Positions 2,125 through 29,901 of a stretch of 64,000 bases of DNA are shown here, piece after piece (position 1 is the first letter of the stretch; each line of letters opens with the position of its first letter). This stretch comes from an uncultured Alphaproteobacteria bacterium (lineage in GTDB: Bacteria; Pseudomonadota; Alphaproteobacteria; Rhizobiales; Rhodomicrobiaceae), in assembly GCA_963727795.1 (NCBI GenBank), contig CAVSHC010000011.1, positions 903 to 64,902 of the forward strand, given 5' to 3'. Both the position numbers and the translations under genes were made by a program. Below the pieces are notes generated by a model, which saw only the letters and a list, made by a program, of their open reading frames with translations, had not been told where the DNA came from and did no database searches.

Positions 2125-4195
2125 ATGCCAGGAAGGGTGGATTTTCGCGTCGAGGATGGCGTTGGCGTCGCATCGATTTCAAACCCGCCGGTGAACGCAC
2201 TCGGCATCGAGATCCGTCGCGGAGTGATGGCCGCGCTCGAAAAGTCGAGAAGGGACCCAGCCATCCAGGGCGTCATCCTGACGTCGGAGGGAAAGATTTT
2301 CAGCGGCGGGGCTGACATCGCTGAGTTCGATCGCCCTCCGATTGCTCCGATCCTGGCCGATGTCATCGCGGCCGTCGCTACTTTGGGCAAGCCCGTTGTC
2401 GCCGCCATGCAGGGAACGGCTCTCGGAGGCGCGGTCGAACTGGCGCTCGCTTGCACAGCGCGCATCGTAAGCCCCGGCGCTAGGCTGGGGCTGCCCGAGA
2501 TCAAGCTCGGCCTGATCCCGGGCGCCGGCGGCTCCCAGCGCCTCCCGCGCGCGATTGGCGCGGCGCCGGCCTTCGCCATGATGATCGAGGGCGATCCGAT
2601 ATCCGCGCGGCAAGCGTTAGATTGGGGCTTGTCGAGGGAATCGCCGAGGGAGACCTGATTGCCGCCGCGAAAACCAAAACGCTCGAACTTGCGTCCCGGC
2701 CGGCGTCCGCCGATGGCTCCGGCAGGCTGGCGCGCGAAGGCGAGCGCGCCGAGTTCGAGAAAGCCGCCGCGCGCGCCGCGAAGGAGCACGCGGGCAAGCC
2801 CAATATCGCGGCTTTGATCGAAGCGGTTCGCGCCGCCTTCGACAAACCGCTCCCGGAAGGTCTGGCCTTCGAGCGTCAGCTTTTCCTTAAACTGAGGGAC
2901 GATGAGCGCTCCACGGCTTTTCGTTACGCCTTCTTCGCGGAGCGCAAAGCGGGAAAGCTCAGGGACATGCCGCCCGAAACGGAGGCCCGGTCAATAACAC
3001 GCGCCGCCATCATCGGGGCCGGCACGATGGGAACCGGCATCGCGATCTGCTTCTTGAATGCCGGCATTCCCGTCACGCTGATCGAAGACAACCGGAACAC
3101 GCCCTCTCGAAAGGTTTCGATCGCATCAAGGCGATGCTTGACGATGGGGTGCGGCGCGGGAAATCGGCCCCGATGCGCGCGACAGACAGATCGCGCTTTT
3201 GAGCTCGAGTTTGAACCTTGAGGATGCCGCGGAAGCCGATCTCATCGTTGAGGCGGTCGTCGAGGACATGCAGGTCAAGAGGGAGATTTTTGCGAGGCTC
3301 GGCAGAATCGCAAAGCCGGGGGCGATCCTCGCGACGAACACCTCCTATCTCAACATCGACGAGATCGCCTCCGCGACCTGCCGGCCCGAACATGTGCTCG
3401 GCCTGCATTTCTTCAGCCCGGCGAATATCATGCGCCTCGTAGAGGTCGTCCGGGCGGAGAAAACGGCGTCGGAGGTTTTGAAAACGGCCGTCGACCTTGC
3501 GCGGAAGCTCGGCAAGGTTCCTGTCACAGTTGGCGTCTGCCATGGCTTCGCCGGCAACCGGATGCTCGCGCGGCGGCATCAGCAAGCGGAACGCCTTCTG
3601 ATCGAGGGCGCGCCGCCGCATCACATCGATGCGGCCATGGTGGAATTCGGCTTTCGCATGGGGCCGTTCGCCGTCGTCGATCTCGCCGGCCTCGACATCG
3701 GTTGGCGCATGCGCACGGCGACCGGCGCAAAGGCCGCCATCGCGGATGCGCTTTGCGAGCGCGGGCGGCTTCGGCCAGAAGACGGGCAAAGGCTACTACA
3801 TCTATTCCGAAGGCGCGCGCGAAGGCGTAGTGGACCCGGACGTTGAACGCTTGATCGAGGAGGTCTCCGCGACGCTCGGCGTGCAGCGCCGCGCAATTAC
3901 CGCCGCCGAAATCATCGAGCGCCTCATCTTCCCCATGGTGAATGAAGGCGCGCGCATCCTTAGCGAAGGCATTGCGGCGCGTGCCAGCGACATCGACGTG
4001 ATCTGGATGAACGGCTACGGATGGCCGGCCTGGCGGGGCGGCCCGATGTATTACGCAGATCGAGCGGGCCTGCCTTACGTGGTCGCGAGGCTTGAGACGT
4101 TTGCGGCGGCGGCCGGGGACGAAAGCCTGCTGCCTTCGCCTGTTCTGCGGGAGCTGGCGGAAGCCGGCCGCACATTCACCGAGGCTCACGCCTAA
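2125..4195 (+). pseudogene. Enoyl-CoA hydratase/3-hydroxyacyl-CoA dehydrogenase multifunctional enzyme (FadB/FadJ/PimF-like), four frameshifts (real decay or sequencing error)
   Basis: Crotonase motifs (NPPVNAL, FSGGADIAEF, GGAVELALAC, GLPEIKLGLIPGAGGSQRLPR), Rossmann GAGTMGTG, and HAD motifs ATNTS, GLHFFSPA, GFAGNR, GFGQKTGKGYY. These lie in different frames, with breaks at ~2625, ~3093, ~3162 and ~3770. Confidence 0.9.
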
Positions 4196-4278
4196 GAAAC
4201 GTTTTGCTGCGGGTCAGCGGGGGAGCGCAGCCGACAATTTCAATGAGCATGGTAATATGGAACCGCGCGAATCCTGCG

Positions 4279-4671
4279 TCAGCTCGGGGTCACCATCCGG
4301 CAGACTGCGACTGTGGCCTGGATCAGATCCCGCGGCAATGAAGGCTTGGTCAAGACTTTGGCTCTTGGCCAGTCGTTCTCGATCGCCGACGTATCCAGCA
4401 TTCCCGTGATGAAGACGATGCCCTTGCCTTTTTCATCAAGTATTCTTGCGATCGGAAAAGCGTCGCCACCCTTGAGCGTGACATCCAGCACTCCGCCATC
4501 GAGCTGCTCGGACTGTGCGAGCGACACGGCGCTCCGGACGCTCACAGCTGGCCCCACGATTTCCGCGCCAGCATCGCTAAGGGCGTCCGCAATATCGAGT
4601 ACAAGCAATGCATTGTCCTCGGCGACGAGTATACGGCAGCCGTCTAACGGCCTGCAAGCCGAACGGTCCAT
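4279..4671 (-). CDS. Single-domain response regulator (FAT GUY-like receiver)
   Basis: RILVAEDN...VLDVTL...FITG...VLTKP, with GGAGGA RBS before the ATG at 4671. Confidence 0.85.
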   Translation of the reverse strand: MDRSACRPLDGCRILVAEDNALLVLDIADALSDAGAEIVGPAVSVRSAVSLAQSEQLDGGVLDVTLKGGDAFPIARILDEKGKGIVFITGMLDTSAIENDWPRAKVLTKPSLPRDLIQATVAVCRMVTPS

Positions 4672-4852
4672 GGTTCCTCCCAAGCCCTTGATTTTAATTT
4701 ATTTTAGATCCAAGGGAAGGCGATGTTAGCGGCAGCCTTGCCTAAAATCAAGGCTGCAATTTCCGCGTGAATGGTAACGCTTGCTTTCACAGTCCTCCTT
4801 CTGCGCTGAATCAGCTAAGAACCACGGCCGATTGTCAAATTCGCTCCACGAG

Positions 4853-4985
4853 CAGGCCGCTGAAAAAGCCGGAAATCCTTGCTTCATCCTTCGACAAGCT
4901 CAGGATGAGGCCGAGCGATACCAACAGCTTGGACCTCATGGTGAGCTTTTCGAACCATGCGCCGCATGGTTTTTTCAGCATCCTC
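4853..4985. repeat. Repeat family A copy 1 (~130-bp MITE-like; CAGG..GCTGAAAAA termini enclosing a TTCGACAAGCTCA palindromic pair)
   Basis: Close copies at 29967-30072 (partial, reverse) and 43182-43313. This copy abuts the ChaN-like gene TAG stop. Confidence 0.8.
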
Positions 4986-6023
4986 CTAGCGTTCGCCAGC
5001 TTTCTTGGCCTTTTTCGCTTTCAGCTCTTTCTCCAGTTCGGCGCAGTGATCCGTCAGGTCCATTCTTGGCGTCAGATAAATGAAGTCGAAGGGTTGCTCC
5101 AGCCCTGGGGCCTTCTTCATGTAGGCCGATGGCTCAATGCGCTCGGGATCGACCTCGATAAAGGCGACCGAGACGACGGCGGCGTCCGGCAGCTTCCGGC
5201 GGATCGTGTGCGAAACGGCCCAGTCGTTGCGGACGTGTCCCGCTCCGGCGATCAAGACCGCACCTTCGCTCGCGTTTGCCTGCGTCATCGCGTTGGCGAG
5301 GGAGCCGTCCAGGGCGCGCTGCACGCGCAGCATGGGCTCCAACGCGGCGGCAGGCAGAAGATTGCAATGCCCGTCCTTGATCTCTTCGCCCTCCGCCTCG
5401 GCGATTTCCGGTTTCAGGGGCTCGGCAAGGTCGAAATCCTGGACGGCTTTTTCGAAGAGCGGCAGCGGCGCCTTTTTGGCGACCGCCTTTTGCGTGTCCG
5501 CGTCGAGCCCGCCCGCAAACAGGCGCAAGCCGGCCCCGAGCGCTGTCTCCGCAATGGGCTGGTAGATGATCCATTCGGGCCAGCCGTGCTCTTCCCATCG
5601 AAGTGCCTTTCCGAGCGCGCCGGCTGCGCCAGCGCCGCCTTGCGCGTGACGATCGAGTTCCGGCTGGAGGTTCGCAGGGACCATCTCGAAAACGACTGCG
5701 GGACGGCGGCCCTTTTTCACGAGCGCGGCGATGAGTTGAGCTTGCAACCGATGATGATCGGGATTGTCGTGGATCTCTCCGAGCAATACGAAGCGGGCTT
5801 TGGCCAAGGCGGTCTCAAGCTCGCCCGGCGTGACCTTTTGAAAGTCCGAGTTCCAGATCGTGCCGGCGAGAGGATGGTTCTGGAAATGCGGCGCAGCCCA
5901 CTTTTCCTCCGCGGCCACGGTATTTGGTGAAGGAAGGGGCGCGAGCGCCGCGACTGTGGCCAGGACAAGAAAGCCGGCCGGCGATGCAAGATTCCAAATC
6001 GCCGGGCCGCGCCCGTTCCTCAT
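4986..6023 (-). CDS. ChaN-family (haem-uptake/Tiki-like) exported protein
   Basis: Signal-peptide-like N-terminus. Motifs VLLGEIHDNPDHH, VVFEM, GHC and LIAGAGHVR. Confidence 0.8.
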   Translation of the reverse strand: MRNGRGPAIWNLASPAGFLVLATVAALAPLPSPNTVAAEEKWAAPHFQNHPLAGTIWNSDFQKVTPGELETALAKARFVLLGEIHDNPDHHRLQAQLIAALVKKGRRPAVVFEMVPANLQPELDRHAQGGAGAAGALGKALRWEEHGWPEWIIYQPIAETALGAGLRLFAGGLDADTQKAVAKKAPLPLFEKAVQDFDLAEPLKPEIAEAEGEEIKDGHCNLLPAAALEPMLRVQRALDGSLANAMTQANASEGAVLIAGAGHVRNDWAVSHTIRRKLPDAAVVSVAFIEVDPERIEPSAYMKKAPGLEQPFDFIYLTPRMDLTDHCAELEKELKAKKAKKAGER

Positions 6024-6261
6024 GCGCCTTATCGTTGTTTGACCGATCGTCTTCAATCCGCGCATTGCGCCGCTCTCAGGATGGAAGTGATGCCGAACTC
6101 CGCCCTTCAAGGCTCCCAATCTCTGCGCGTTGTCAAGCTGCGCCATCGTGCGTCCGGGGTTCGGCGGCGAAGCGGCTCCCTGCGAGACCTCTTCGGCGCG
6201 GCCGTCCGAGGCCGCACAAAGCCTCCGTCTGTCCTCTGAGGCGCCTGATTAAGAGATCATC

Positions 6262-7854
6262 TTACCGGCGGGCGACAACCTTGCATTCGTTGCCATTGAA
6301 AGATTTGCACTCGCTCAAAGCCGTCTCGTCGGCTTGTGAAGTGCTTGTATAGTTATACGAGTAGCCGCAGCCTCCGCTCTTTCCGGCTGCGAACGATCCG
6401 TGACGCTGCATGCGCAGCCATTTTTCCGCAGTCTTCTTGCACTCGGCGTCCAACTGCCAGTTTCCCTCGTCAGATTCGGTAATCCGGCATTCGGTTCCGC
6501 TCTTTTCGCATTCTTCCAATGCAGATTTCGTAGCCCCGGTTGGATTTATGTAATCGTACGACCAGCCACAACTGCCGTTGCGGGCTACGGCGAAGGCTCG
6601 GGCGGGTTCAAACTTCCGGAACTTTTCTAGCCCGGCCTTGCAGTCCTGGCTGAGTTCCCAGTCGCCTTGATCGACATCGTGTAGTCTACAATCGCCCGAG
6701 GCGCGCTCACAGACGACGAGCGCCTCGGTCTTGGCTTCTTCTAATTGCTTGCGGCCAGTTGATGACGCACACCACCCGCTTCGGGCGACGGCGAAGGCTT
6801 TTGCGGCCACTTCCGTTTTCCACTTGCTGTAGAAATCCTCGCAAGCAGGTTTGAGTGACCAATCACCCTCGGTAAGCTCAATAACCCGGCAGTCGCTGCC
6901 CCGAGCGTTGCATGCCTCCAGAGCCTTGTCTCGAGCAACCGACACTTTGAGAAGGTCGGAACTGGATCCGCAAACGGCGCCTTCGCTGTCGACAGCGAAA
7001 GCCCCAACGGCGGCCGATGACCGCCATTTTTTGAGTTGCTCACGGCATGCGGCTGTGAGTTGGACTTCAAATCCCGTCTTCTCACCATTCAGCCATAGCT
7101 CGATCTTCAGCCGCGAAAGCCGCTCGGGCTGCTGTGTGCCTTTGGTCGCCTTCTCCACCTCGGCGGTGACTTGTTTGAGCATCTGCTCCACTTCGAGCCC
7201 TTTTGTTTCGGCGTGCTTCAAAAACGCGGCCGTGAACGGGCTGTTGCGCCCGTCGCCGTCCTGCGCCTCCTGCCCGGGGGCGGCCGAATAAACCACCAGC
7301 ATATTACCCGCCGAAGCCTCGATGCGGCCCAGGCCCCGGCTCAAGGCTGGCGCGCGGCCTCGGCCTTTCAAGCTTTCACGGAGCCTGTCTGCAAGCGGAT
7401 TGCTGCGGCAGGCGTCGAGGATCACAATTCCGGCCTTGGCGGAGCTTTCCAGCGCAGTGACGATTTCTTGCGCCGCCACCGTTTCGCGCCGGATGGCGAA
7501 CTCGCTTTCGAGCTTGGCGTCCGTTGGCAAAAGATAGGCGCCACCTTCATATTGCAGGCCGTGGCCCGCATAATAGAACACGGCTATATCGGCGTCGCGT
7601 GCTTGTCCCATAAACTGGTCGATGGCCTTGACGAAGGCGGGGGCATCGGCGTCGAGCACAAGCGACGCATCGAAGCCGAGGCGCGTGAGCTTGGCGGCGA
7701 TATCGGTGGCGTCGTTGATGGGGTTGCCGAGCTTGCCGGCCGAAATGTAGGCGGAATTGCCGATGACGAGCGCAATTCGTTTTTCGGAGGCGGCGCCGGC
7801 AGTGGCGCCGAGGAAAAGAATTAGGATAGCAATCAAAGCGCGGGGCAGTGCCAT
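6262..7854 (-). CDS. Secreted caspase-family (peptidase C14) protein with four C-terminal Cys-rich repeats (DUF4189-like)
   Basis: Signal peptide, then RIALVIGNSAY, NPINDA, catalytic YYAGHG and ILDACR, YSAAPG and NSPFT. Four ~67-aa repeats with AFAV and four Cys each. Confidence 0.85.
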   Translation of the reverse strand: MALPRALIAILILFLGATAGAASEKRIALVIGNSAYISAGKLGNPINDATDIAAKLTRLGFDASLVLDADAPAFVKAIDQFMGQARDADIAVFYYAGHGLQYEGGAYLLPTDAKLESEFAIRRETVAAQEIVTALESSAKAGIVILDACRSNPLADRLRESLKGRGRAPALSRGLGRIEASAGNMLVVYSAAPGQEAQDGDGRNSPFTAAFLKHAETKGLEVEQMLKQVTAEVEKATKGTQQPERLSRLKIELWLNGEKTGFEVQLTAACREQLKKWRSSAAVGAFAVDSEGAVCGSSSDLLKVSVARDKALEACNARGSDCRVIELTEGDWSLKPACEDFYSKWKTEVAAKAFAVARSGWCASSTGRKQLEEAKTEALVVCERASGDCRLHDVDQGDWELSQDCKAGLEKFRKFEPARAFAVARNGSCGWSYDYINPTGATKSALEECEKSGTECRITESDEGNWQLDAECKKTAEKWLRMQRHGSFAAGKSGGCGYSYNYTSTSQADETALSECKSFNGNECKVVARR

Positions 7855-8196
7855 AATCTCGGCTTCCGTATCGTCTCTGGCGGCACCTTACCTATCGGGA
7901 TAGCTTTTGGGAATGTGGGGGCTTAGCGCGTTGCTTCCCAAGCAGATGCTTGTGACTATTTGGGTACATTTCGCAGACGGATCCGGACGGTTCGTCGCCG
8001 TCTGTTCGTTAGCGAAGCCATCCGCTTAGTATTCAAGTCCAAGATCGGTAATCGCGGGATTGAGCGCGCGTTCGCCAGAGGCTGAAGCGCGAGCCTCGCG
8101 CATTAACGCTTCACAGGGCCGGAACGATAAATTACCAATTAACGGCGGAGCGAAAAGCAGAACCAGAATTCCGGCGGAGGAAGCGCAGGCAGGCCG

Positions 8197-9267
8197 ATGA
8201 CAGAGGAAATCCAAGCCCGCCGCTGGGTCATGACCGCGGTTGGGGCGCCCTTGAGGAAAGAGCCTTTCGTGGCGCGGGCTGGCGCGGGCGAAGTCGTGAT
8301 CGCGGTCGCCGGATGCGGCCTTTGCCACACCGACCTCGGCTTTCTTTTCGATGGCGTGCGCACGAACCATCCGCTGCCGCTCACGCTCGGGCACGAAATC
8401 TCCGGACGCGTCGCCGCCGCCGGCGAAGGCGCGGAAGGCTGGCTTGGAAAGGCCGTCATCGTTCCGTCGGTCATGCCTTGCGGGGAGTGCGATGCGTGCC
8501 GGTGCGGCCTGTCGACCATCTGCCGGCGCCAAAAGATGCCGGGTAACGATATTCATGGCGGCTTCGCCTCTCATATCGTGGTCCCGGCCCGCGGTTTGTG
8601 CGTTGTCGATGAGCGCCGCCTCAGGAAAGCGGGCCTGAGCCTTGCTGACGTGTCCGTGGTCGCCGATGCAGTCACGACGCCTTATCAGGCGGTGCTTCGA
8701 GCAGGCGTTCGTCCCGGAGCCCTTGGCGTCGTCGTCGGCGTTGGGGGAATCGGCGGCTTTGCGGCGCAGATCGCCAAGGCGGCCGGGGCGACCGTCGTCG
8801 CCATCGACGTGGACGCCAAAAAGCTGGAAATCATGGACGGGGGAACGGCGGCCCTCACGCTGAACGCCCGCGACCACGATCAGAAGGCGTTGAAAGCTCG
8901 CATCGTCGAGTTCTGCAAGGCTCACGGCCTGCCACTGACCGAGTGGTTCATCTTCGAGTGCTCTGGGACGGCGGCGGGGCAGTTGACTGCGTTCGGCCTG
9001 CTGACCCATGGCGCGACGCTGAGCATTGTCGGCTTCACGATGGATCGCATCGAGGTCCGGCTTTCCAACCTCATGGCATACGACGCCCGCGCCATCGGCA
9101 ACTGGGGCTGTCCGCCCGAGTTCTACCCGGCGGCCCTCGGTCTGGCGCTCGACCGTCGCATCGAGCTTGCCGCTTTCGTCGAGAAGCATCCGCTGGACGA
9201 AATCGAGCGCGTGATCGCGGACGCCCGCGGGCGCCGGCTCACGCGCCGCGCCATCCTCGTTCCCTGA
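8197..9267 (+). CDS. had: 6-hydroxycyclohex-1-ene-1-carbonyl-CoA dehydrogenase
   Basis: Zn-MDR motifs CGLCHTD, GHE and [15 protein letters not shown]. The signature [16 protein letters not shown] and the operon context fit. Confidence 0.9.
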
Positions 9268-22942: not shown

Positions 22943-24601
22943 ATGGCCCCTCCGCAATACGTCTATGTGATGCAGAAGCTTTCCAAAACCTACCCCGGCG
23001 GAAAGCAGGTGCTCAGCAACATCTCGCTCTCGTTCCTGCCCGACGCCAAGATCGGCGTGGTGGGCGTGAACGGCTCGGGCAAGTCCACGCTGTTGAAGAT
23101 CATGGCGGGCGTCGAGAAGGAGCACCAGGGCGAGGCCTGGGCGGCCGAAGGCGTGCGCGTGGGCTATCTCCCGCAGGAACCGCGGCTCGACGAGACGAAG
23201 GACGTGCTCGGCAACGCCATGGACGGCGTGGCGGACAAGAAGGCCATGCTCGACCGCTATAACGAACTGGCGATGAACTATTCCGACAAGTCCGCGGACG
23301 AGATGGCGAAGCTTCAGGACTTTATCGACGGGCACAATTTGTGGGACCTCGACGCGCAGGTGGAGCAGGCGCTGCAGGCCATGAATTGCCCGCCGCCGCA
23401 TGAGAGCGTGACGAACCTGTCGGGCGGCGAAAAGCGCCGCGTCGCGCTGACAGCCCTGCTGCTGGCGCGGCCCGACATCCTGCTGCTCGACGAGCCGACC
23501 AACCATCTCGACGCGGAGTCGGTGGATTGGCTTCAGCATTACCTCGAAGACTATCCGGGCTGCGTGATCCTCGTCACCCACGACCGCTACTTCCTCGATA
23601 GCATCACGACATGGACGCTGGAGCTCGATCGCGGGCAGGGCATCCCCTACAAGGGCAATTATTCGAGCTGGCTTGAGCAGAAGGCGAAGCGCGCCGCGCA
23701 GGAAAAAAGCGAGGACGAAGCCAAGCAGCGGACCTTGCAGCGCGAGCTGGAATGGATCAGGGCGTCGCCCAAGGCGCGGCAGGCCAAGAGCAAGGCGCGC
23801 ATTCAGGCTTATGAGAAGCTCGCCGAGGAGGCGGCCCGCGACCAGGTCGGCAAGGCGCAAATCCAGATCCCGACGGGGCCGCGGCTTGGCGGTGTGGTGC
23901 TGGAGGCGGATCACATCAAGAAAGGATTCGAAGGCCGCACGCTTATCGAAGGGCTCGATTTCAAGCTGCCGCCCGGCGGCATTGTCGGCGTGATCGGGCC
24001 GAACGGCGCGGGCAAGACCACGCTGTTCAAGATGATCATCGGCAAGGAGACGCCTGACGCGGGCGCCTTCCGCATCGGCGATACGGTGAAACTCGGCTAT
24101 GTGGACCAGAGCCGCGACGCGCTCGATCCGAAGAAGAACGTCTGGGAGGAGATCTCGGGCGGCCTCGATCAGATCAAGCTGGGAACGCGCGAGGTGAACA
24201 GCCGCGCTTACTGCGGCTGGTTCAACTTCAAGGGGCCGGACCAGCAGAAGAAGGTCGGCCTGCTTTCGGGCGGCGAGCGCAACCGCGTCCATCTCGCCAA
24301 GATGCTGAAAGAGGGCGGCAACCTGCTCCTGCTCGACGAGCCGACGAACGACCTCGACGTGGAGACGCTGTCGAGCCTCGAGGCGGCGCTGGAGGATTTC
24401 CCCGGCTGTGCGGTGGTCATCAGCCACGATCGCTTCTTCCTCGACCGGCTCGCCACGCACATCCTTGCCTTCGAGGGCGACGGCCACGTCGAGTGGTTCG
24501 AGGGCAACTTCCAGGCCTATGAGGAGGACAAGCTCCGCCGCCTCGGCGCCGCCGCGCTCGACACGCCGAAAGCGAAGTTCGCGAGGTTCGCGCGCGGCTA
24601 G
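22943..24601 (+). CDS. ettA: Energy-dependent translational throttle protein EttA (ABC-F)
   Basis: Two ABC domains (GVNGSGKS, GPNGAGKT), LSGGE motifs, and the PtIM linker ELEWIRASPKARQAKSKARI. Confidence 0.96.
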   Translation: MAPPQYVYVMQKLSKTYPGGKQVLSNISLSFLPDAKIGVVGVNGSGKSTLLKIMAGVEKEHQGEAWAAEGVRVGYLPQEPRLDETKDVLGNAMDGVADKKAMLDRYNELAMNYSDKSADEMAKLQDFIDGHNLWDLDAQVEQALQAMNCPPPHESVTNLSGGEKRRVALTALLLARPDILLLDEPTNHLDAESVDWLQHYLEDYPGCVILVTHDRYFLDSITTWTLELDRGQGIPYKGNYSSWLEQKAKRAAQEKSEDEAKQRTLQRELEWIRASPKARQAKSKARIQAYEKLAEEAARDQVGKAQIQIPTGPRLGGVVLEADHIKKGFEGRTLIEGLDFKLPPGGIVGVIGPNGAGKTTLFKMIIGKETPDAGAFRIGDTVKLGYVDQSRDALDPKKNVWEEISGGLDQIKLGTREVNSRAYCGWFNFKGPDQQKKVGLLSGGERNRVHLAKMLKEGGNLLLLDEPTNDLDVETLSSLEAALEDFPGCAVVISHDRFFLDRLATHILAFEGDGHVEWFEGNFQAYEEDKLRRLGAAALDTPKAKFARFARG

Positions 24602-24758
24602 ACGCGAACCGGCTCGAAAGTGGGTAGAACGCGACCCAATTTTTGTCGAAGATGCGCCCTGGAACGGGGCGCCTTCGACGCCTGCCACAGCTAACGGTCG
24701 AGTTGCTTGAAGGGGAAACGGGTTCGGAAGTCTAATCGGCGCCTCATATGGTTGTGTG

Positions 24759-25199
24759 ATGGGAATCACAATGTTTAGCTTAGACAAGGCAAAGGTCGAT
24801 ATTGAGACAGTGAGGCATGAATATATCGATGCCAGCACTAATGTTCGGCATCACAGCAATCTGCGCTTTGCGCAATTGACTCTGTTTTCTGCTTTAACCG
24901 GAGGGCTTCTTTCGATAGTTTTTGGACACCAGACAAGTATTCCCCCGTTTGCTGGGATCTGCCTTGAGGCGCTCGGGCTAGTAGTAGCTAGCACATTTTT
25001 CGTTATGGAATTAAGAACAAGTGTTTATTGGAGACATTATCGCTCGCGCGCTGCTGCGCTTGAAACCACGCTAGGTTATTCTCAATACTCAACAATACCA
25101 ATTGGTAAGCGGTTAACCGCCGCGAATGCGACTAAGTTGCTCTACGTCAGCGTGGTCTTGCTATGGATAGCAATTTTAGGTTTCCAGTTTCTGCCCTAA
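24759..25199 (+). CDS. Small membrane protein of unknown function, low GC
   Basis: Three hydrophobic segments, many TTA/CTA/ATA codons, and visibly lower GC than the flanks. Confidence 0.65.
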   Translation: MGITMFSLDKAKVDIETVRHEYIDASTNVRHHSNLRFAQLTLFSALTGGLLSIVFGHQTSIPPFAGICLEALGLVVASTFFVMELRTSVYWRHYRSRAAALETTLGYSQYSTIPIGKRLTAANATKLLYVSVVLLWIAILGFQFLP

Positions 25200-25361
25200 G
25201 CGCGAGTTAAGAAAACTCGTTATAGATGCGAGGGCGCTACTGCCCCGGAAAGACGGAGTGACTTCGCTTTAACGAAGCCGCCCGATGCAAGAAAAGCAGG
25301 TTTCCAAACGTAATTTTATGTCATAGTTTTGCAGCGCTGACGTAACAAGCGGCTGCGGCGG

Positions 25362-27563
25362 ATGCCGCAGGCGGAGAGTATTTTTGCCGTGCCGCAGGAT
25401 GGAGAAATTCGGGCTGGCCTTCCCGCCGGGCAAGGCGCGCCCGCAGCGAGCGGGCTGGCCGAAGCTCTGCTCCGTTCGTCGCGCGACGCCATCGCTGTAA
25501 TCGATCTCGCCGGTAACATCGTGCTGGTGAACGGCGCCGGGTTGGAAGCGATGGAGATCGGCTCTTTGCACACAGTCCGCGGCCGGCCGTGGCATTCCCT
25601 TTGGGCTCAGGACTGCGCCTCTCAGATCAATGCGGGCGTGGCGCGCGCAAGGCGCGGCAAGACCTCGACGCTCACGGTTTATCGCGCCGCCGGGGACGCG
25701 CCGTCCTGGTGGAACTTGACCGTGTCGCCGGTCTACGAAGCCGGAGCCGTGGTTCAAATCCTGTCCCAGGCGCACAAGCTGGCAGGGTCCTCGCCTGAGG
25801 AAGACAAGCTTGCGCGCGAGCTTTCCGGTCAGAGAACGGCTTTGATCCTCCTCGGCGAACAGCTTGAGGCGGAGTCCAGGCGGCTCTCGGAGTCGCGCAG
25901 GCAATTATCCCAGGCGGAAAAGGTCAAGCTGCTCGGACAGTTTTCGGGCGGCATCGCGCATGACATCAACAATGTCCTGGCGGTGATGGCCAGCGCCTGC
26001 CAAATCTTACGCAAGGTCTCCCCCTCGGAGCAGGCGAACACCGTTCTCGGCCATGCCGAAGCCGCAATCGAGCGCGGAGCGCGCCTCGTCCGGAAACTTC
26101 TCGATTGTGCGAGGGTCTCTTCCGAGGACCCCGAGATCCTCTATCTGGACCGGCTGTTGAGCGAGGATGCGGGCCTTCTTCATCATCTGGCCGGTCACGG
26201 GATCGAAATCTGTTTCGACCTTCCCAACGATCTGTGGCCGGTGCTGGCGGCGCCGGGCAAGTTTCAGACCGTTATCTTCAATCTCGTCGCCAATGCGCGC
26301 GACGCCATGCCCGAAGGCGGCCGTTTGACGGTCCAGGTCCGCAATTGCTACGCGAACGAGAGGCCGGTGAGCCTGCCGCCGAAAGACTTCGTCGCGCTCA
26401 CGCTCCGCGACACCGGCAAGGGGATGACGCCGGAGGTGCTGGCGCGCGCGGGAGAGCCGTTTTTCACGACGAAGCAAAAGGGGATGGGCGCCGGACTTGG
26501 ATTGGCCTCGGCCTTCGATTTTGCGGATCAGTGCGGCGGCGCCGTCGCCCTTGAAAGCGCGCCCGGCGAAGGAACCACGATAACGATCCACATTCCACGG
26601 GCGGCGGTCACGACCGGGAGCGGGTCTGTCCCATCGGCGAATGCCGCTTCCCAGCCCCATGGCGGCGCGACCATCCTTCTCCTGGAAAGCGACGATTCCT
26701 TGCGGCGGCGCGTCGGAAGTCTGTTGCGATCGCTCGATTATGCCGTAATTGAAGCGGCCAGTTCGCAGCAGGCGCTTGCCGCGGCGCTGGCGGCCGTCAA
26801 GATCGACTTGATCGTCGCCAATCTCGATCTTGCAAAGGGACCGGGGTTCGAACTCCTGGGAGAGGCAAAGCCGTTGGCGCCGGCGATTCCGCGGATTTTC
26901 CTGTCCGGACCGCAAGAGCATCGAAGCATCCCCCAAGAAATCGTTTTCCGGAAGCCAATTCAGGGACCCTTGCTGGCCCAGGCCATTCTCGAGAAGCTAG
27001 GGCGCGCGCCTCCCTCACTTGCGCCGGCGGAAACGCTGCGTATCGCGGACCGGCTTCGGGACAGGATCCGGAATCCAAAAGTTCTCGCCCTTTATGACTG
27101 CTGGCGGCGCATCGCCAACGAGAAAAGTCATCTGCCGTCAACCGCCGATGCAGCCGGCTTTGAGACCTTCCTGCCCGAAAACGCCTATCTCCTGGAAATC
27201 ATGGGACCGCAAGATGCGCCGTCATTCCGGTTTGTCCGCGTAGGCAGCGCCCTGGTGGAGAGGCTCGGCCGTGAGCTTGAAGGCGAAATCTTGCGCGCCT
27301 CGGACCATGACGTGCTTGGAAGCATAACCCGCGCACTCCAGCGCTGCCTGAAGGGCGTGGCTTATTTCGACTACACGCGCTTTTCTTTGGGCGACGGCCG
27401 GATGCTCTTGTTTGAAAGGTTGCTTTTACCGGTTTCGAGCAATAAGACTGCCGTCACGCATCTTTTCGGCGTCGCGACTTTTGACGAGATGAGGGCGGCT
27501 CTCGCGGACGGTCTTCATGAAACTCGTCGACTTCAACGATCCGAACCTGGCCAGGAAGCTTGA
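25362..27563 (+). CDS. Hybrid sensor histidine kinase: PAS-HisKA-HATPase-degenerate REC-PAS_5
   Basis: PAS (DAIAVIDLAGNIVLVN...WWNLTVSPV), H-box GIAHDINN, NARDAMP, DTGKGM, FFTTK, GLGL. The REC reads IDLIVAN (phosphoacceptor D replaced by N). The C-terminal region LYDCWRR...FRFVRVGSAL...ERLLLP is PAS_5-like. Confidence 0.88.
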   Translation: MPQAESIFAVPQDGEIRAGLPAGQGAPAASGLAEALLRSSRDAIAVIDLAGNIVLVNGAGLEAMEIGSLHTVRGRPWHSLWAQDCASQINAGVARARRGKTSTLTVYRAAGDAPSWWNLTVSPVYEAGAVVQILSQAHKLAGSSPEEDKLARELSGQRTALILLGEQLEAESRRLSESRRQLSQAEKVKLLGQFSGGIAHDINNVLAVMASACQILRKVSPSEQANTVLGHAEAAIERGARLVRKLLDCARVSSEDPEILYLDRLLSEDAGLLHHLAGHGIEICFDLPNDLWPVLAAPGKFQTVIFNLVANARDAMPEGGRLTVQVRNCYANERPVSLPPKDFVALTLRDTGKGMTPEVLARAGEPFFTTKQKGMGAGLGLASAFDFADQCGGAVALESAPGEGTTITIHIPRAAVTTGSGSVPSANAASQPHGGATILLLESDDSLRRRVGSLLRSLDYAVIEAASSQQALAAALAAVKIDLIVANLDLAKGPGFELLGEAKPLAPAIPRIFLSGPQEHRSIPQEIVFRKPIQGPLLAQAILEKLGRAPPSLAPAETLRIADRLRDRIRNPKVLALYDCWRRIANEKSHLPSTADAAGFETFLPENAYLLEIMGPQDAPSFRFVRVGSALVERLGRELEGEILRASDHDVLGSITRALQRCLKGVAYFDYTRFSLGDGRMLLFERLLLPVSSNKTAVTHLFGVATFDEMRAALADGLHETRRLQRSEPGQEA

Positions 27564-27903
27564 AGATTTATCGGACGCCGAGCGTCACGATTTGCCTTTC
27601 GGCGTCATCAAGCTTGACGGAAGCGGCATTGTCACGTTTTTCAGCGCGACGGAAGCCAGGCAATCCGGATACAAGAAGCGTCCCGCCGTCGGGCTCGATT
27701 TTTTCCTGAACATCGCGCCCTGCATGGCGACGCCCGAGTTCAAGGGACGCGTCGAAGAAGCCCGCAGAGCAGGCGCCGTCGAAATAGAAATCGGCTGGGT
27801 TGGAGACTTCGACGATCCGGACCGAGAAATGATCGTCCGTATCCAATCGGCCATCGATGGCGGTCTCTGGATTTGCCTCAATCGCGACGACGCGTCAGGC
27901 TGA
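27517..27903 (+). CDS. pyp: Photoactive yellow protein (PYP)-like PAS protein
   Basis: LPFGVIKLDGSG, E46 equivalent (SATE), VGLDFFLNIAPCM with the C69 equivalent, EFKGR, and terminal WICLNR. 128 aa, the size of PYP. Confidence 0.8.
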   Translation: MKLVDFNDPNLARKLEDLSDAERHDLPFGVIKLDGSGIVTFFSATEARQSGYKKRPAVGLDFFLNIAPCMATPEFKGRVEEARRAGAVEIEIGWVGDFDDPDREMIVRIQSAIDGGLWICLNRDDASG

Positions 27904-29154
27904 AAGCCTCGAAACCACGCCTTCTATTCCCAGAAAGAACATGCCCGTTCCGCCCACGAGCAGATGGGAAGCCGTCGCCGCGAGAAGCGAGTTCGTGCGG
28001 GCGAATATCCAGCCCCAAAGCATGCCGGGGAGGAAGGCTGCGATGGCGAAGGCGAGGCTGATATGCGCATGCGCGGCGGCGAAGACCAGATTCGAGGCGA
28101 GGATCGACACCCACCGGCGCTTCATTTCGCTGCCATGCAGGAAGGCGTAAAGCGGCGCCTGGATGCCCGAGCGCGCCACGAACTCCTGCATGGGCGTCAG
28201 CAGAAGATAGACCGCGAGCGCCACCCAATACCATGCCGTCATCGGGACAGGATGTCCGCTCACCTCGACATCGGCGCTGTCGATCAGCGGAACGTCCGCG
28301 AAACTCTGGGAGGTGTTGATCAAGATCCACTTCCCGGCGACGAACAGCAGGAGAAAAAATACCGACGCCTGGAGCGAAAAAGCCAGCGCAGGACGCCAGT
28401 TGTCGAAGCGCAAGCCGAAGAACCTTAGCGGGAATCCGCTCGTTGCGATAATGGGAACGAAGCAGAGGCCGAAGAGGAGGATCACGATCGGGGTAAGAAC
28501 GAAATTCGCATGCGCGAGGCTCTTGAAGTTCGGCAGGAAGCTGAGCGTCAGCGTGTAGAAGGACAACAGGCAAAGCGTGGCGACAACGATGTGCCCGACG
28601 CCGTTGCGATAGGCGGCGAATTCATTTTCGAGCTGGAGGCTGTTGACCCGAAGCGCCACGAACTCATCGGCGTGTTTCGTGAGATAATGCCGGAGCTTGT
28701 TTGCGACGACATCGTGCAGCCGCCTCGTCGCGCTTCTCATGCGCAACGCCCTCAGGTCGACCACGGCAAGAACGGTCTCGGTTTTCGTAACGAAGGATAA
28801 GGCGCTGGGCTTGCCATCGACGAAAGACAACTCGCCGAATATCTCACCCCGCCGGAGCACGCTGAGCTCGTAGGAGGTCGGCTCCTTTTCGAGAGGATGC
28901 AGCCCCTCTTTCGTCAAGGCCACCTGTCCGTCGACGATGATATAAATCTTGCCCGGGTTTCTGGCTCCTTCCTGCAGAACGAAGCAACCCGGCTTGAATT
29001 TTTTGTGTTTTATGTGAGGAAGGACAAGACGTATTTGCTGCCGTGAAAGATTTTCGAACAATGGGTTTTTGGGAATTTCTAGATAACGGCCCCTCGACCG
29101 CACCGGTAAGGTGGGTACGGTTACTGTAGCGAGCGCGTTTGCCAATTCACCCAT
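27895..29154 (-). CDS. Cyclic-nucleotide-binding domain fused to CPBP (Abi/CAAX) intramembrane protease
   Basis: cNMP motif GEIFGELSFVDGKPSALS, then multiple TM helices with PMQEFVARSG, FAAAH and SH motifs. Confidence 0.85.
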   Translation of the reverse strand: MGELANALATVTVPTLPVRSRGRYLEIPKNPLFENLSRQQIRLVLPHIKHKKFKPGCFVLQEGARNPGKIYIIVDGQVALTKEGLHPLEKEPTSYELSVLRRGEIFGELSFVDGKPSALSFVTKTETVLAVVDLRALRMRSATRRLHDVVANKLRHYLTKHADEFVALRVNSLQLENEFAAYRNGVGHIVVATLCLLSFYTLTLSFLPNFKSLAHANFVLTPIVILLFGLCFVPIIATSGFPLRFFGLRFDNWRPALAFSLQASVFFLLLFVAGKWILINTSQSFADVPLIDSADVEVSGHPVPMTAWYWVALAVYLLLTPMQEFVARSGIQAPLYAFLHGSEMKRRWVSILASNLVFAAAHAHISLAFAIAAFLPGMLWGWIFARTNSLLAATASHLLVGGTGMFFLGIEGVVSRLSA

Positions 29155-29901
29155 AAATTCCGATAGCCTATCTCTAGGTTCAGTTTACCTTTTGTCTCTC
29201 CGTATGCACGTAAAACCTTACGGAGGTAAAACGATCCAGTGAGCGTGCCTGCTATGTTCTGATCATAGACACAACTTCTTGAGCGTAGAAGCTAAAACAG
29301 ACTGCGCAATACTGTACGCTGTCACTCTTTGTTTTGCTATCTGAACTGCTTTGGTGTCCCTTCCTGTAATAACGCCGGGCACGGAAGGGTTTATCCTAGC
29401 TGTAGGAAGCCAATTTTAAGTTAGCACAAATAATCTCCAACGCCGCCTGCATCTCCCAAGAAATTAAGTCGTCTTGTAAACGTTCACGTCCGGCTAGAGG
29501 TTGCCGATTTTTTGTGCTCTAAGACTAATAATTCGCTACTCCTATTAGCCTAGCGCCTAATTCGCGTAAGCCTCAAGAACGATTCTCTCAGCCTAAGCAT
29601 CAATGATAGCTGAAGTCTACGCTTTCAGTTGTTTCAAAATCCCGTGAATATAAGACATCGTAAACGGTTGAGCCTCCGTTTTCAACAGGCGGAAAAACCG
29701 TCCGCGGCAAAAAAGGTCCGTGGCGACGCTTTGCTTGCGGGCAGAGCCAGCTAAAACAGCCTTTATTCGGGCGCGAGGCGCCCTGCGACGAATTGAGCAA
29801 CGGGTCGTACTGCGATGGGGGGCCGCAGCCTTTGCGGCGGCGCACCCTTCTCTCCCAGAGGGAGGGGGCCTATGCCGTTCAGGAAGCCGGGCAGGCTTGC
29901 T

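Follow-up and report, generated by a model that had tools for sequence, protein, structure and literature searches.

How a stand-alone photoactive yellow protein (PYP) passes on its signal has been a standing question since PYP was discovered in 1985. Here, we describe a locus in which a PYP-like gene lies directly behind the gene of a hybrid histidine kinase. The locus is part of a stretch of 64,000 nucleotides (nt), called the window in the following (GenBank assembly GCA_963727795.1, contig CAVSHC010000011.1, positions 903 to 64,902 of the forward strand). Its source is a Rhodomicrobium species, a purple phototroph as judged from the pufL and pufM genes encoded in the same genome. The genus follows from a complete genome of the same GTDB genus, in which the PYP gene has the coordinates of Rvan_1016 from R. 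vannielii ATCC 17100. Comparison of the locus with its relatives suggests that a small domain at the C-terminus of the kinase, here called the tail, is the constant partner of a PYP sub-clade and a concrete candidate for the docking site of the PYP.

Several described systems resemble this locus. In Ppr from Rhodospirillum centenum, a PYP module controls a histidine kinase, as is proposed for the window, and its PYP domain (matched with an E value of 1.4e-14) shares Ser50 with the window protein. However, the PYP module of Ppr is fused N-terminally and works with a phytochrome, whereas the PYP of the window is a separate polypeptide, is not accompanied by a phytochrome and has a PAS domain at the C-terminus of the kinase as its candidate contact. 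In Rb. capsulatus, PYP binds PBP (RCAP_rcc01067), the product of the gene immediately upstream, after illumination (Kim et al. 2021, bioRxiv 10.1101/2021.06.01.446672). This combination of a stand-alone PYP with a partner encoded just upstream is the only experimental precedent for the interaction proposed here, but PBP is not attached to a kinase. Moreover, the tail can be ruled out as a PBP homolog: comparison with the PBP family (40 aligned sequences of 47 upstream open reading frames (ORFs)) gave an hhalign probability of 0.05%, and the tail profile did not match the family. Thus, the precedent is an analogy and not a homology. The PBP-type genes (about 142 amino acids (aa)) lie directly upstream of pyp in 47 Rhodobacterales loci of many genera (L062-L117; L numbers designate loci throughout), share the motif '...GLVVRGD..EWVL.AAAE...RFEI.PQC...YRWV...HDMSLTRNDSFL.NEPGV' and seem to form a family of their own that is unrelated to the tail.

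The closest relatives have already been catalogued. Dohmen et al. (2025, J Bacteriol; PMC12826048) collected 984 PYP homologs and predicted 17 pyp operons with HisKA/HATPase genes, which were located 'preferentially upstream of the pyp gene'. The authors inferred that PYP feeds a two-component system and considered the information insufficient for a mechanism. Their supplementary operon table contains Rvan_1016, with a hybrid histidine kinase of the PAS/PAC sensor type (713 aa) followed by a PYP of 126 aa, and RPD_3338 from R. palustris BisB5, with a histidine kinase/response regulator of 709 aa followed by pyp via an ATGA junction with a 4-nt overlap (PMC12826048). The window carries the orthologous pair, in which the gene of a hybrid PAS kinase (about 710 aa) immediately precedes that of a PYP (about 126 aa), but with a 47-nt overlap in place of the ATGA junction or short gap. 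That clade A PYPs have histidine kinases among their neighbours had been noted before by Xing et al. (2022; PMC9664959). The initial annotation had treated the combination of a free PYP with such a kinase as an unrecognised system. This does not hold, since the orthologous pairs of Rhodomicrobium vannielii and R. palustris BisB5 as well as kinase neighbours were on record in these two studies. The window locus joins a group of PYP-kinase pairs that are catalogued and have never been studied experimentally.

A further likeness exists to clade C of Xing et al., which comprises uncharacterised Burkholderiales PYPs that have lost Phe96 and are encoded beside a signalling enzyme, in this case GGDEF proteins. 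However, Met100 is present and Trp119 is missing in clade C, whereas the sub-clade of the window protein has Asp100, keeps the Trp (W118) and is associated with kinases and not with diguanylate cyclases. Membership in clade C was rejected because of Asp100 in place of Met100 and the retained Trp (PMC9664959).

The tail and its pairing with PYP genes

The comparison concerns three parts of the locus:

25362-27563, + strand: kinase ORF of 733 aa (ORF list and Pfam domains; CckA-like by NCBIfam)
27006-27488, + strand: tail domain, aa 549-709 of the kinase (about 160 aa), with a PAS_5-like PAS fold (alignment, PAS_5 matches, AlphaFold)
27517-27903, + strand: PYP-like ORF of 128 aa, stand-alone, belonging to the 'GDFxD' sub-clade (TIGR02373, solved PYP structures, 84 homologs)

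Related loci were gathered by a pattern scan of species genomes, by exact-protein look-up and from regions of Rhodopila globiformis, and every six-frame ORF at these loci was scored with hidden Markov models (HMMs), one for the tail and one for PYPs of the sub-clade. The pairing, whose conservation the initial annotation had made a matter for a survey, is indeed conserved: 33 of 35 PYP-like genes are directly preceded by a tail-bearing gene in the same orientation, and the two domains are 9-509 nt apart. One of the two exceptions belongs to the L030 cluster, where a second PYP gene has a divergent orientation; the other is considered with the rival explanations. The pairing occurs in Alphaproteobacteria, Betaproteobacteria (Burkholderiales) and Myxococcota (Polyangiales), and the junctions are mostly overlaps or gaps of up to 25 nt. 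The tail is the sole element common to all upstream partner genes, which show at least seven architectures (REC, receiver; MAG, metagenome-assembled genome):

PAS-HisKA-HATPase-REC-tail: window, Rhodomicrobium, Rhodopseudomonas, Bradyrhizobium MAGs and one Rhodopila MAG
dCache-PAS-HisKA-HATPase-REC-tail: Skermanella, 1190 aa
GAF-PAS-HisKA-HATPase-REC-tail: one Burkholderiales MAG
PASx4-GAF-HisKA-HATPase-tail: R. globiformis, 1298 aa (L055, 1892-6204)
Minimal HisKA-HATPase-tail, about 420 aa, lacking any further sensor domain: one Polyangiales MAG and one metagenome contig (L053, L054)
PAS-PAS-HWE_HK-tail: nine or more of the scanned loci, R. globiformis (L035) among them
Free tail protein of 204 aa, overlapping its own PYP gene by 20 nt: R. 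globiformis (L056, 4622-5594)

In R. globiformis DSM 161, all three tails encoded in the genome are followed by PYP genes (L035, L055, L056). Moreover, the HWE and HisKA kinase cores of the partners are unrelated at the BLAST level.

The presence of the two proteins is also correlated at the level of genomes. Within the genus, three of four genomes contain both genes and the fourth contains neither. Among about 700 sampled alphaproteobacterial genomes, tails scoring above 200 bits and PYPs of the sub-clade were confined to three genomes, each of which had both. No genome of this sample was discordant; it contained canonical PYPs without a tail and generic PAS_5 proteins without a PYP. A class-level profile of 400 genomes revealed no discordance and, because the sub-clade is rare, no further positives; a tail-like neighbour was absent from five canonical-PYP loci of this sample. 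In maximum-likelihood trees, the PYPs and the tails alike fall into HisKA- and HWE-linked sequences that are separated by a single change (SH-aLRT 98-99), and Rhodopila, Hyphomicrobiaceae and even one single genome are represented on both sides of this split. The congruence of the two trees indicates that both proteins have been inherited and have diversified as a pair.

The tail itself resembles PAS_5/DUF1457 (PF07310), a family of mostly stand-alone alphaproteobacterial proteins, in that it covers the profile nearly end to end and has a predicted PAS fold. The last 185 residues of the kinase (aa 549-733) match profile positions 5-135 of 137 with an E value of 0.11 and 12.8 bits, which is below the gathering threshold of 22, and the profile is matched at E <=1 by 8 of 22 orthologous tails (best E value 3.8e-5). 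In contrast to PAS_5 proteins, the tail is tied to PYP genes and usually fused to a kinase. The tail subfamily is distinct, with scores from above 100 to 230 bits against its own profile compared to 26-68 bits for generic PAS_5 proteins. Its conserved motifs are W, LP, FRFV-VG-AL-ERLGR, LFERLLLP-S and VTHL-G. An AlphaFold model of the tail, based on the alignment of 22 sequences, has a PAS/LOV-type fold (pLDDT 84.7, pTM 0.77). With this model, Foldseek returned 71 matches in the PDB at E <=0.001, headed by short LOV proteins and the PAS domain of BvgS with a probability of 1.0; among the best 50 of the 71 matches, nearly all are LOV domains, the others being the BvgS PAS domain and one bacteriophytochrome. 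By sequence, the tail did not match any solved structure. The idea that the tail is a diverged PYP was dropped at an hhalign probability of 0.3%.

To judge from the literature, this rule appears to be unreported. In a term search of Dohmen et al. (PMC12826048), neither a C-terminal tail, PAS_5 or DUF1457 nor HWE-type operon partners were mentioned; the neighbourhood passages of Xing et al. (PMC9664959) do not mention a C-terminal tail, PAS_5 or DUF1457 either, and a full-text literature search for a link of the tail, PAS_5 or DUF1457 to PYP found none. It had been suggested for the window that the PYP might act on the kinase through its PAS_5-like end, and this suggestion receives strong comparative support from the tail being the only element shared by the partner genes. 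The comparison thereby narrows the candidate contact of the PYP to one small domain that can be expressed alone, and the tail-PYP rule turns an old question into a simple binding experiment. The two minimal kinases and the free tail of R. globiformis would be very simple systems for a first PYP-to-kinase reconstitution.

The PYP homolog, the gene junction and the kinase

The small ORF was annotated as a PYP homolog, and its identity is confirmed by a full-length match to the TIGR02373 'photoactive yellow protein' profile (E value 1e-20, 74 bits, profile positions 3-121 of 124) and by matches to 33 distinct PYP sequences in the PDB (E values 5e-15 to 7e-9). The latter alignment covers residues 3-122 and is ungapped over residues 3-115, so that the numbering of the H. 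halophila protein can be transferred directly. There are 84 homologs, including Rvan_1016 at 76% identity. The residues that matter for the photochemistry of PYP are encoded as follows:

27640-27642, + strand: F42, at the position of Tyr42, which provides the second hydrogen bond to the phenolate
27652-27654, + strand: E46, proton donor and hydrogen-bond partner of the chromophore
27721-27723, + strand: C69, in APCM, thioester attachment site of p-coumaric acid
27802-27816, + strand: GDFDD, residues 96-100, replacing the FDYQM loop

Compared to H. halophila PYP, residues I31, E46, F62, A67, P68 and C69 are kept and the substitutions Y42F, T50S, R52Y, V66I, T70M, F96G, Y98F and M100D have occurred; W118 is retained. 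Of the chromophore pocket set consisting of I31, F62, V66, A67, P68 and F96, four residues are thus unchanged, V66 has become Ile and F96 has become Gly. The earlier calls of C69, E46, Y42F, T50S and R52Y are all right. However, Y42F is not exceptional because Phe42 is a natural variant in 8.9% of the PYP homologs (PMC12826048) and position 42 varies between Phe, Tyr and Leu within the sub-clade. Phe96 is kept in only 56% of the PYP family (PMC12826048). In the alignment of the sub-clade, E46 is invariant, C69 is conserved in 30 of 31 sequences, and S50, C69, M70 and the GDFxD loop are nearly invariant. The examined part of the alignment by Dohmen et al. (PMC12826048) contains about 34 instances of the GDF[DAES]D motif, and none of 12 biochemically characterised PYPs belongs to the sub-clade. 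By its sequence, the small ORF is a genuine, stand-alone member of the PYP family from a small, biochemically uncharacterised sub-clade. The unusual pocket residues (F/Y/L42, S50, G96 and D100) may be of interest for spectral tuning and optogenetic tools.

Both genes lie on the + strand and overlap by 47 nt, exactly at the coordinates that had been assigned to them. The overlap falls into a lineage-specific extension of the kinase:

27489-27563, + strand: extension at the C-terminus of the kinase, of which the final 47 nt lie within the PYP gene (DNA alignment with L012-L017)

The DNA alignment revealed that the distance from the conserved TTTGACGA to ATGA is 41 nt in the window and 42 nt in L012 and L013. 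Due to the linker being 1 nt shorter, the kinase frame misses the ancestral TGA of the ATGA and reads on for 47 nt. According to the initial annotation, a single missing base near 27490 would turn the overlap into an ATGA junction. The resequencing of 27470-27520 that it proposed is unneeded because an identical overlap is present in L047, L048 and L049. These loci stem from the closest relatives (PYPs 87-88% identical to that of the window) and from three metagenome assemblies that are independent of each other. A sequencing error can thus be ruled out, and the overlap is a lineage feature, namely a fixed indel within a poorly conserved linker. A search of sequencing runs for the junction was of no use as it yielded a single peat metagenome with 7% of the words. 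Promoter, terminator and Rfam scans of 24600-29400 gave nothing informative and no such feature between the kinase and PYP genes. The tight coupling that had been proposed for the two genes is borne out by the 47-nt overlap and the ancestral ATGA junction, which also argue for the PYP being made together with the kinase.

The kinase upstream of the tail has the following parts:

25470-25760, + strand: PAS_4 sensor, aa 37-133 (Pfam PF08448, E value 8.9e-12)
25932-26603, + strand: kinase core with HisKA (aa 191-254) and HATPase_c (aa 300-414) (Pfam, 33.3 and 74.3 bits)
26673-27005, + strand: degenerate receiver, aa 438-548 (Pfam Response_reg; alignment with CheY)

The PAS_4 domain is the least conserved part among the orthologous kinases, with 30-52% identity. 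The phospho-accepting His200 is part of the H-box GGIAHDINN, and the N, G1, F and G2 boxes are intact (NLVANARDAM, DTGKGM, FFTTK and GAGLGLA, respectively). The protein is predicted to be a cytoplasmic sensor histidine kinase of the HisKA class that resembles CckA. The Response_reg match (aa 438-521) scores 30.4 bits with a cutoff of 30.2. Alignment with CheY and the orthologs shows that the positions of the CheY residues D57 and D13 are occupied by Asn487 (26820-26822) and Ser, respectively, and that the positions of T87 (here Ser) and K109 (Lys) are kept. The architecture described at the outset, which consists of PAS, HisKA and HATPase domains, a pseudo-receiver and a PAS_5-like end, is therefore sound with respect to both the Pfam matches and the residues at the D57 and D13 positions. 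The acceptor position is Asn in the window, L012 and L014 and Ser in R. vannielii, whereas the Asp is present in the orthologs from Rhodopseudomonas, Bradyrhizobium, Skermanella and Rhodopila. Thus, the receiver has degenerated only in the Rhodomicrobium lineage.

Signal output, chromophore supply and rival explanations

Starting from what is established, i.e. the family membership, the architecture, the coupling of the genes, the tail-PYP pairing and the co-diversification, we infer a chromophore, a photocycle, docking and an output. According to this reading, which we favour by a little, the locus would encode a split photoreceptor kinase. The PYP would carry a thioester-linked hydroxycinnamate on Cys69 and bind to the PAS_5-like domain at the C-terminus of the kinase. 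Blue or UV-A light would change the conformation of the PYP via proton transfer from E46 to the chromophore and release of the N-terminal cap, and the changed contact between PYP and tail would in turn alter autophosphorylation at His200. Because the acceptor Asp of the receiver has been lost in Rhodomicrobium, the phosphoryl group would pass directly to a separate response regulator and the receiver would serve as a structural spacer only. The chromophore would derive from imported, plant-derived p-coumarate that is activated by a general aromatic-acid CoA ligase.

A more general proposal, for which we see even chances, is that the tail is a receptor domain devoted to PYPs, in the form of a portable PAS module that binds its cognate stand-alone PYP. 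Kinases of the HisKA and HWE types would have acquired this module in at least six architectures, with or without other sensors, and it would also be kept as a free protein. If true, this would be the first sequence-defined docking domain joining a stand-alone PYP to a two-component kinase, and any tail-bearing protein could be predicted to be regulated by a PYP.

Several observations weigh against the split photoreceptor kinase; they concern the photochemistry, the docking and the output. As regards photochemistry, the TIGR02373 score of 74 bits is only about half of the trusted equivalog cutoff of 143.05, and with this score and the replacements of Tyr42 by Phe and Phe96 by Gly the photochemistry may differ or be absent. 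The homolog in the L030 cluster, which is encoded between TAL and pCL genes, attains a similar score with the same profile (74.3 bits). Furthermore, neither TAL (PF00221) nor the PYP-type p-coumarate-CoA ligase (pCL) was found in the genome of the window, which is 92.8% complete, in the complete genome of R. vannielii or in Rhodomicrobium sp. Az07, which means that the chromophore would have to be imported.

These points are shared by an alternative that we consider unlikely, namely that the Rhodomicrobium protein is not a photoreceptor, but either a chromophore-free PAS regulator or a reporter of hydroxycinnamate by its holo and apo forms without a role for light. In its favour, three Rhodomicrobium genomes lack both enzymes, the phenolate-stabilising Tyr42 is a Phe and the same exchange perturbs the H. 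halophila protein (Y42F mutant; PMC12826048), and the degeneration of the receiver in the same lineage hints at rewiring. Moreover, the genome of the window encodes aromatic-acid catabolism, with an enzyme of the benzoate-CoA ligase family (702 bits) besides other acyl-CoA ligases, so that hydroxycinnamoyl-CoA would be a possible metabolic signal. With these ligases, imported p-coumarate could conceivably be activated as well. However, the Rhodomicrobium genomes without TAL and pCL nevertheless keep C69 and E46, and this strict retention is hard to explain if no chromophore is bound. PYPs with Phe42 are also encoded in pCL-bearing genomes (G301 and G303), any holo-PYP with thioester-linked coumarate would absorb light, and the organism is phototrophic.

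The remainder of the sub-clade speaks to chromophore supply as well. A ligase of the TIGR02372 type was detected near the cutoff in 10 of 24 sub-clade genomes (146-316 bits, eight of them at 262-316 bits) and in none of the control genomes at E <=1e-30, and 6 of the 24 encode an aromatic ammonia-lyase. In some cases these genes flank the PYP gene. For instance, at L030 the genes for a TAL-like enzyme, an HWE-kinase with a tail, PYP and pCL follow each other in this order on one strand. The entire cluster (L030, 2366-8829) is composed as follows:

2366-2815, - strand: second PYP-like gene
2968-4569: TAL-like lyase
4713-6572: HWE-kinase with tail
6598-6903, - strand: antisense helix-turn-helix (HTH) gene
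6992-7384: PYP gene
7558-8829: PYP-type pCL, 306 bits

At L026 and L027, convergent TAL and pCL genes are located just behind the PYP gene, and at L031 and L033 a pCL gene follows it. The TAL and pCL genes flanking PYP genes support the view that the sub-clade consists of true coumarate-binding PYPs. The MAG containing L030 also has a HisKA-type module (L016) and thus two paralogous PYP-kinase systems. At L027 (7757-10154, - strand), likewise from a MAG, an in-frame stop interrupts each of the two enzyme genes, TAL-like and pCL (TAG in one, TAA in the other), which may be due to decay or to an assembly error.

With respect to docking and output, four further points count against the split kinase, apart from the fact that gene adjacency cannot separate docking from other functional links. 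First, a Rhodopseudomonas MAG (Cfx3-05; L020, 5324-7372) encodes a PYP of the sub-clade without a tail anywhere in the genome. This PYP, which is 58% identical and lies behind a caspase-like ORF of 509 aa, is the only true orphan found. Second, a structural model of a tail-PYP pseudo-fusion from L031, where both share one reading frame and the intergenic stops were read through, had a pLDDT of 60.9 and a pTM of 0.49 in AlphaFold; the PYP half was covered by 4 alignment rows, remained below a pLDDT of 50 and gave no information about docking. Third, there is no response regulator near the window locus. Fourth, an antisense HTH gene lies between the kinase gene and the PYP gene at about seven loci of the HWE type, which implies that the PYP gene there diverges from a small regulator and does not share a transcript with the kinase gene. 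The antisense gene occupies a gap of about 400 nt and encodes about 90-100 aa with an XRE/Cro-type HTH motif ('...LTQAEVAARMGTTQTAIARLE.G.QSPS..TLQN.ARANG.CLEIGF...'). Besides L030, it is present in L024 (6514-6933, - strand), L023, L025, L033 and L035, degraded in L026 and absent from the window. A small + strand ORF in the same gap was dropped in favour of this conserved gene.

A second alternative, which we hold to be improbable, accepts that the PYP and the tail-bearing kinase are linked, but by other means than docking to the tail. The tail might bind a ligand or serve dimerisation or localisation, with the PYP acting on the DHp/CA domains or on a different target. Contact of a small protein elsewhere on a kinase has models in the small kinase inhibitors FixT and Sda. 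PAS_5-type domains are indeed widespread without PYP, such as the stand-alone proteins scoring 50-68 bits in 13 of 400 genomes, the conserved polar residues of the tail (E, R, S and H) could form a ligand pocket, and the docking model provided no direct evidence of an interaction. On the other hand, the tail is the sole shared element of the partners even across HWE and HisKA cores and the kinase-less free tail, the minimal kinases have no input domain but the tail, and the trees of tail and PYP are congruent. That the adjacency is merely inherited synteny without functional coupling, and the small ORF an ordinary PAS protein, is very improbable: PAS domains abound and the ORF stays below threshold in its Pfam PAS match (21.5 compared to 22.6 bits), but its full-length match is specific to PYP and not to generic PAS domains, pairs with differing kinase cores are found in three phyla or classes, and the two genes overlap translationally and are jointly present or absent within the genus.

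Neighbouring genes

Two further genes adjoin the pair in the window:

24756-25199, + strand: predicted membrane protein of 147 aa just upstream of the kinase gene, with weak matches to Rhomboid, 8xMP and DUF4231
27895-29154, - strand: convergent gene of 419 aa, with a cyclic nucleotide (cNMP)-binding domain and an Rce1-like (CPBP) intramembrane protease

In R. vannielii, the position of the 147-aa gene is taken by yidD and an ORF of 88 aa. The convergent gene shares 9 nt with the 3' end of the PYP gene. L047 and L049 show the same synteny for this neighbour, as does R. vannielii, though behind an inserted acyltransferase gene.

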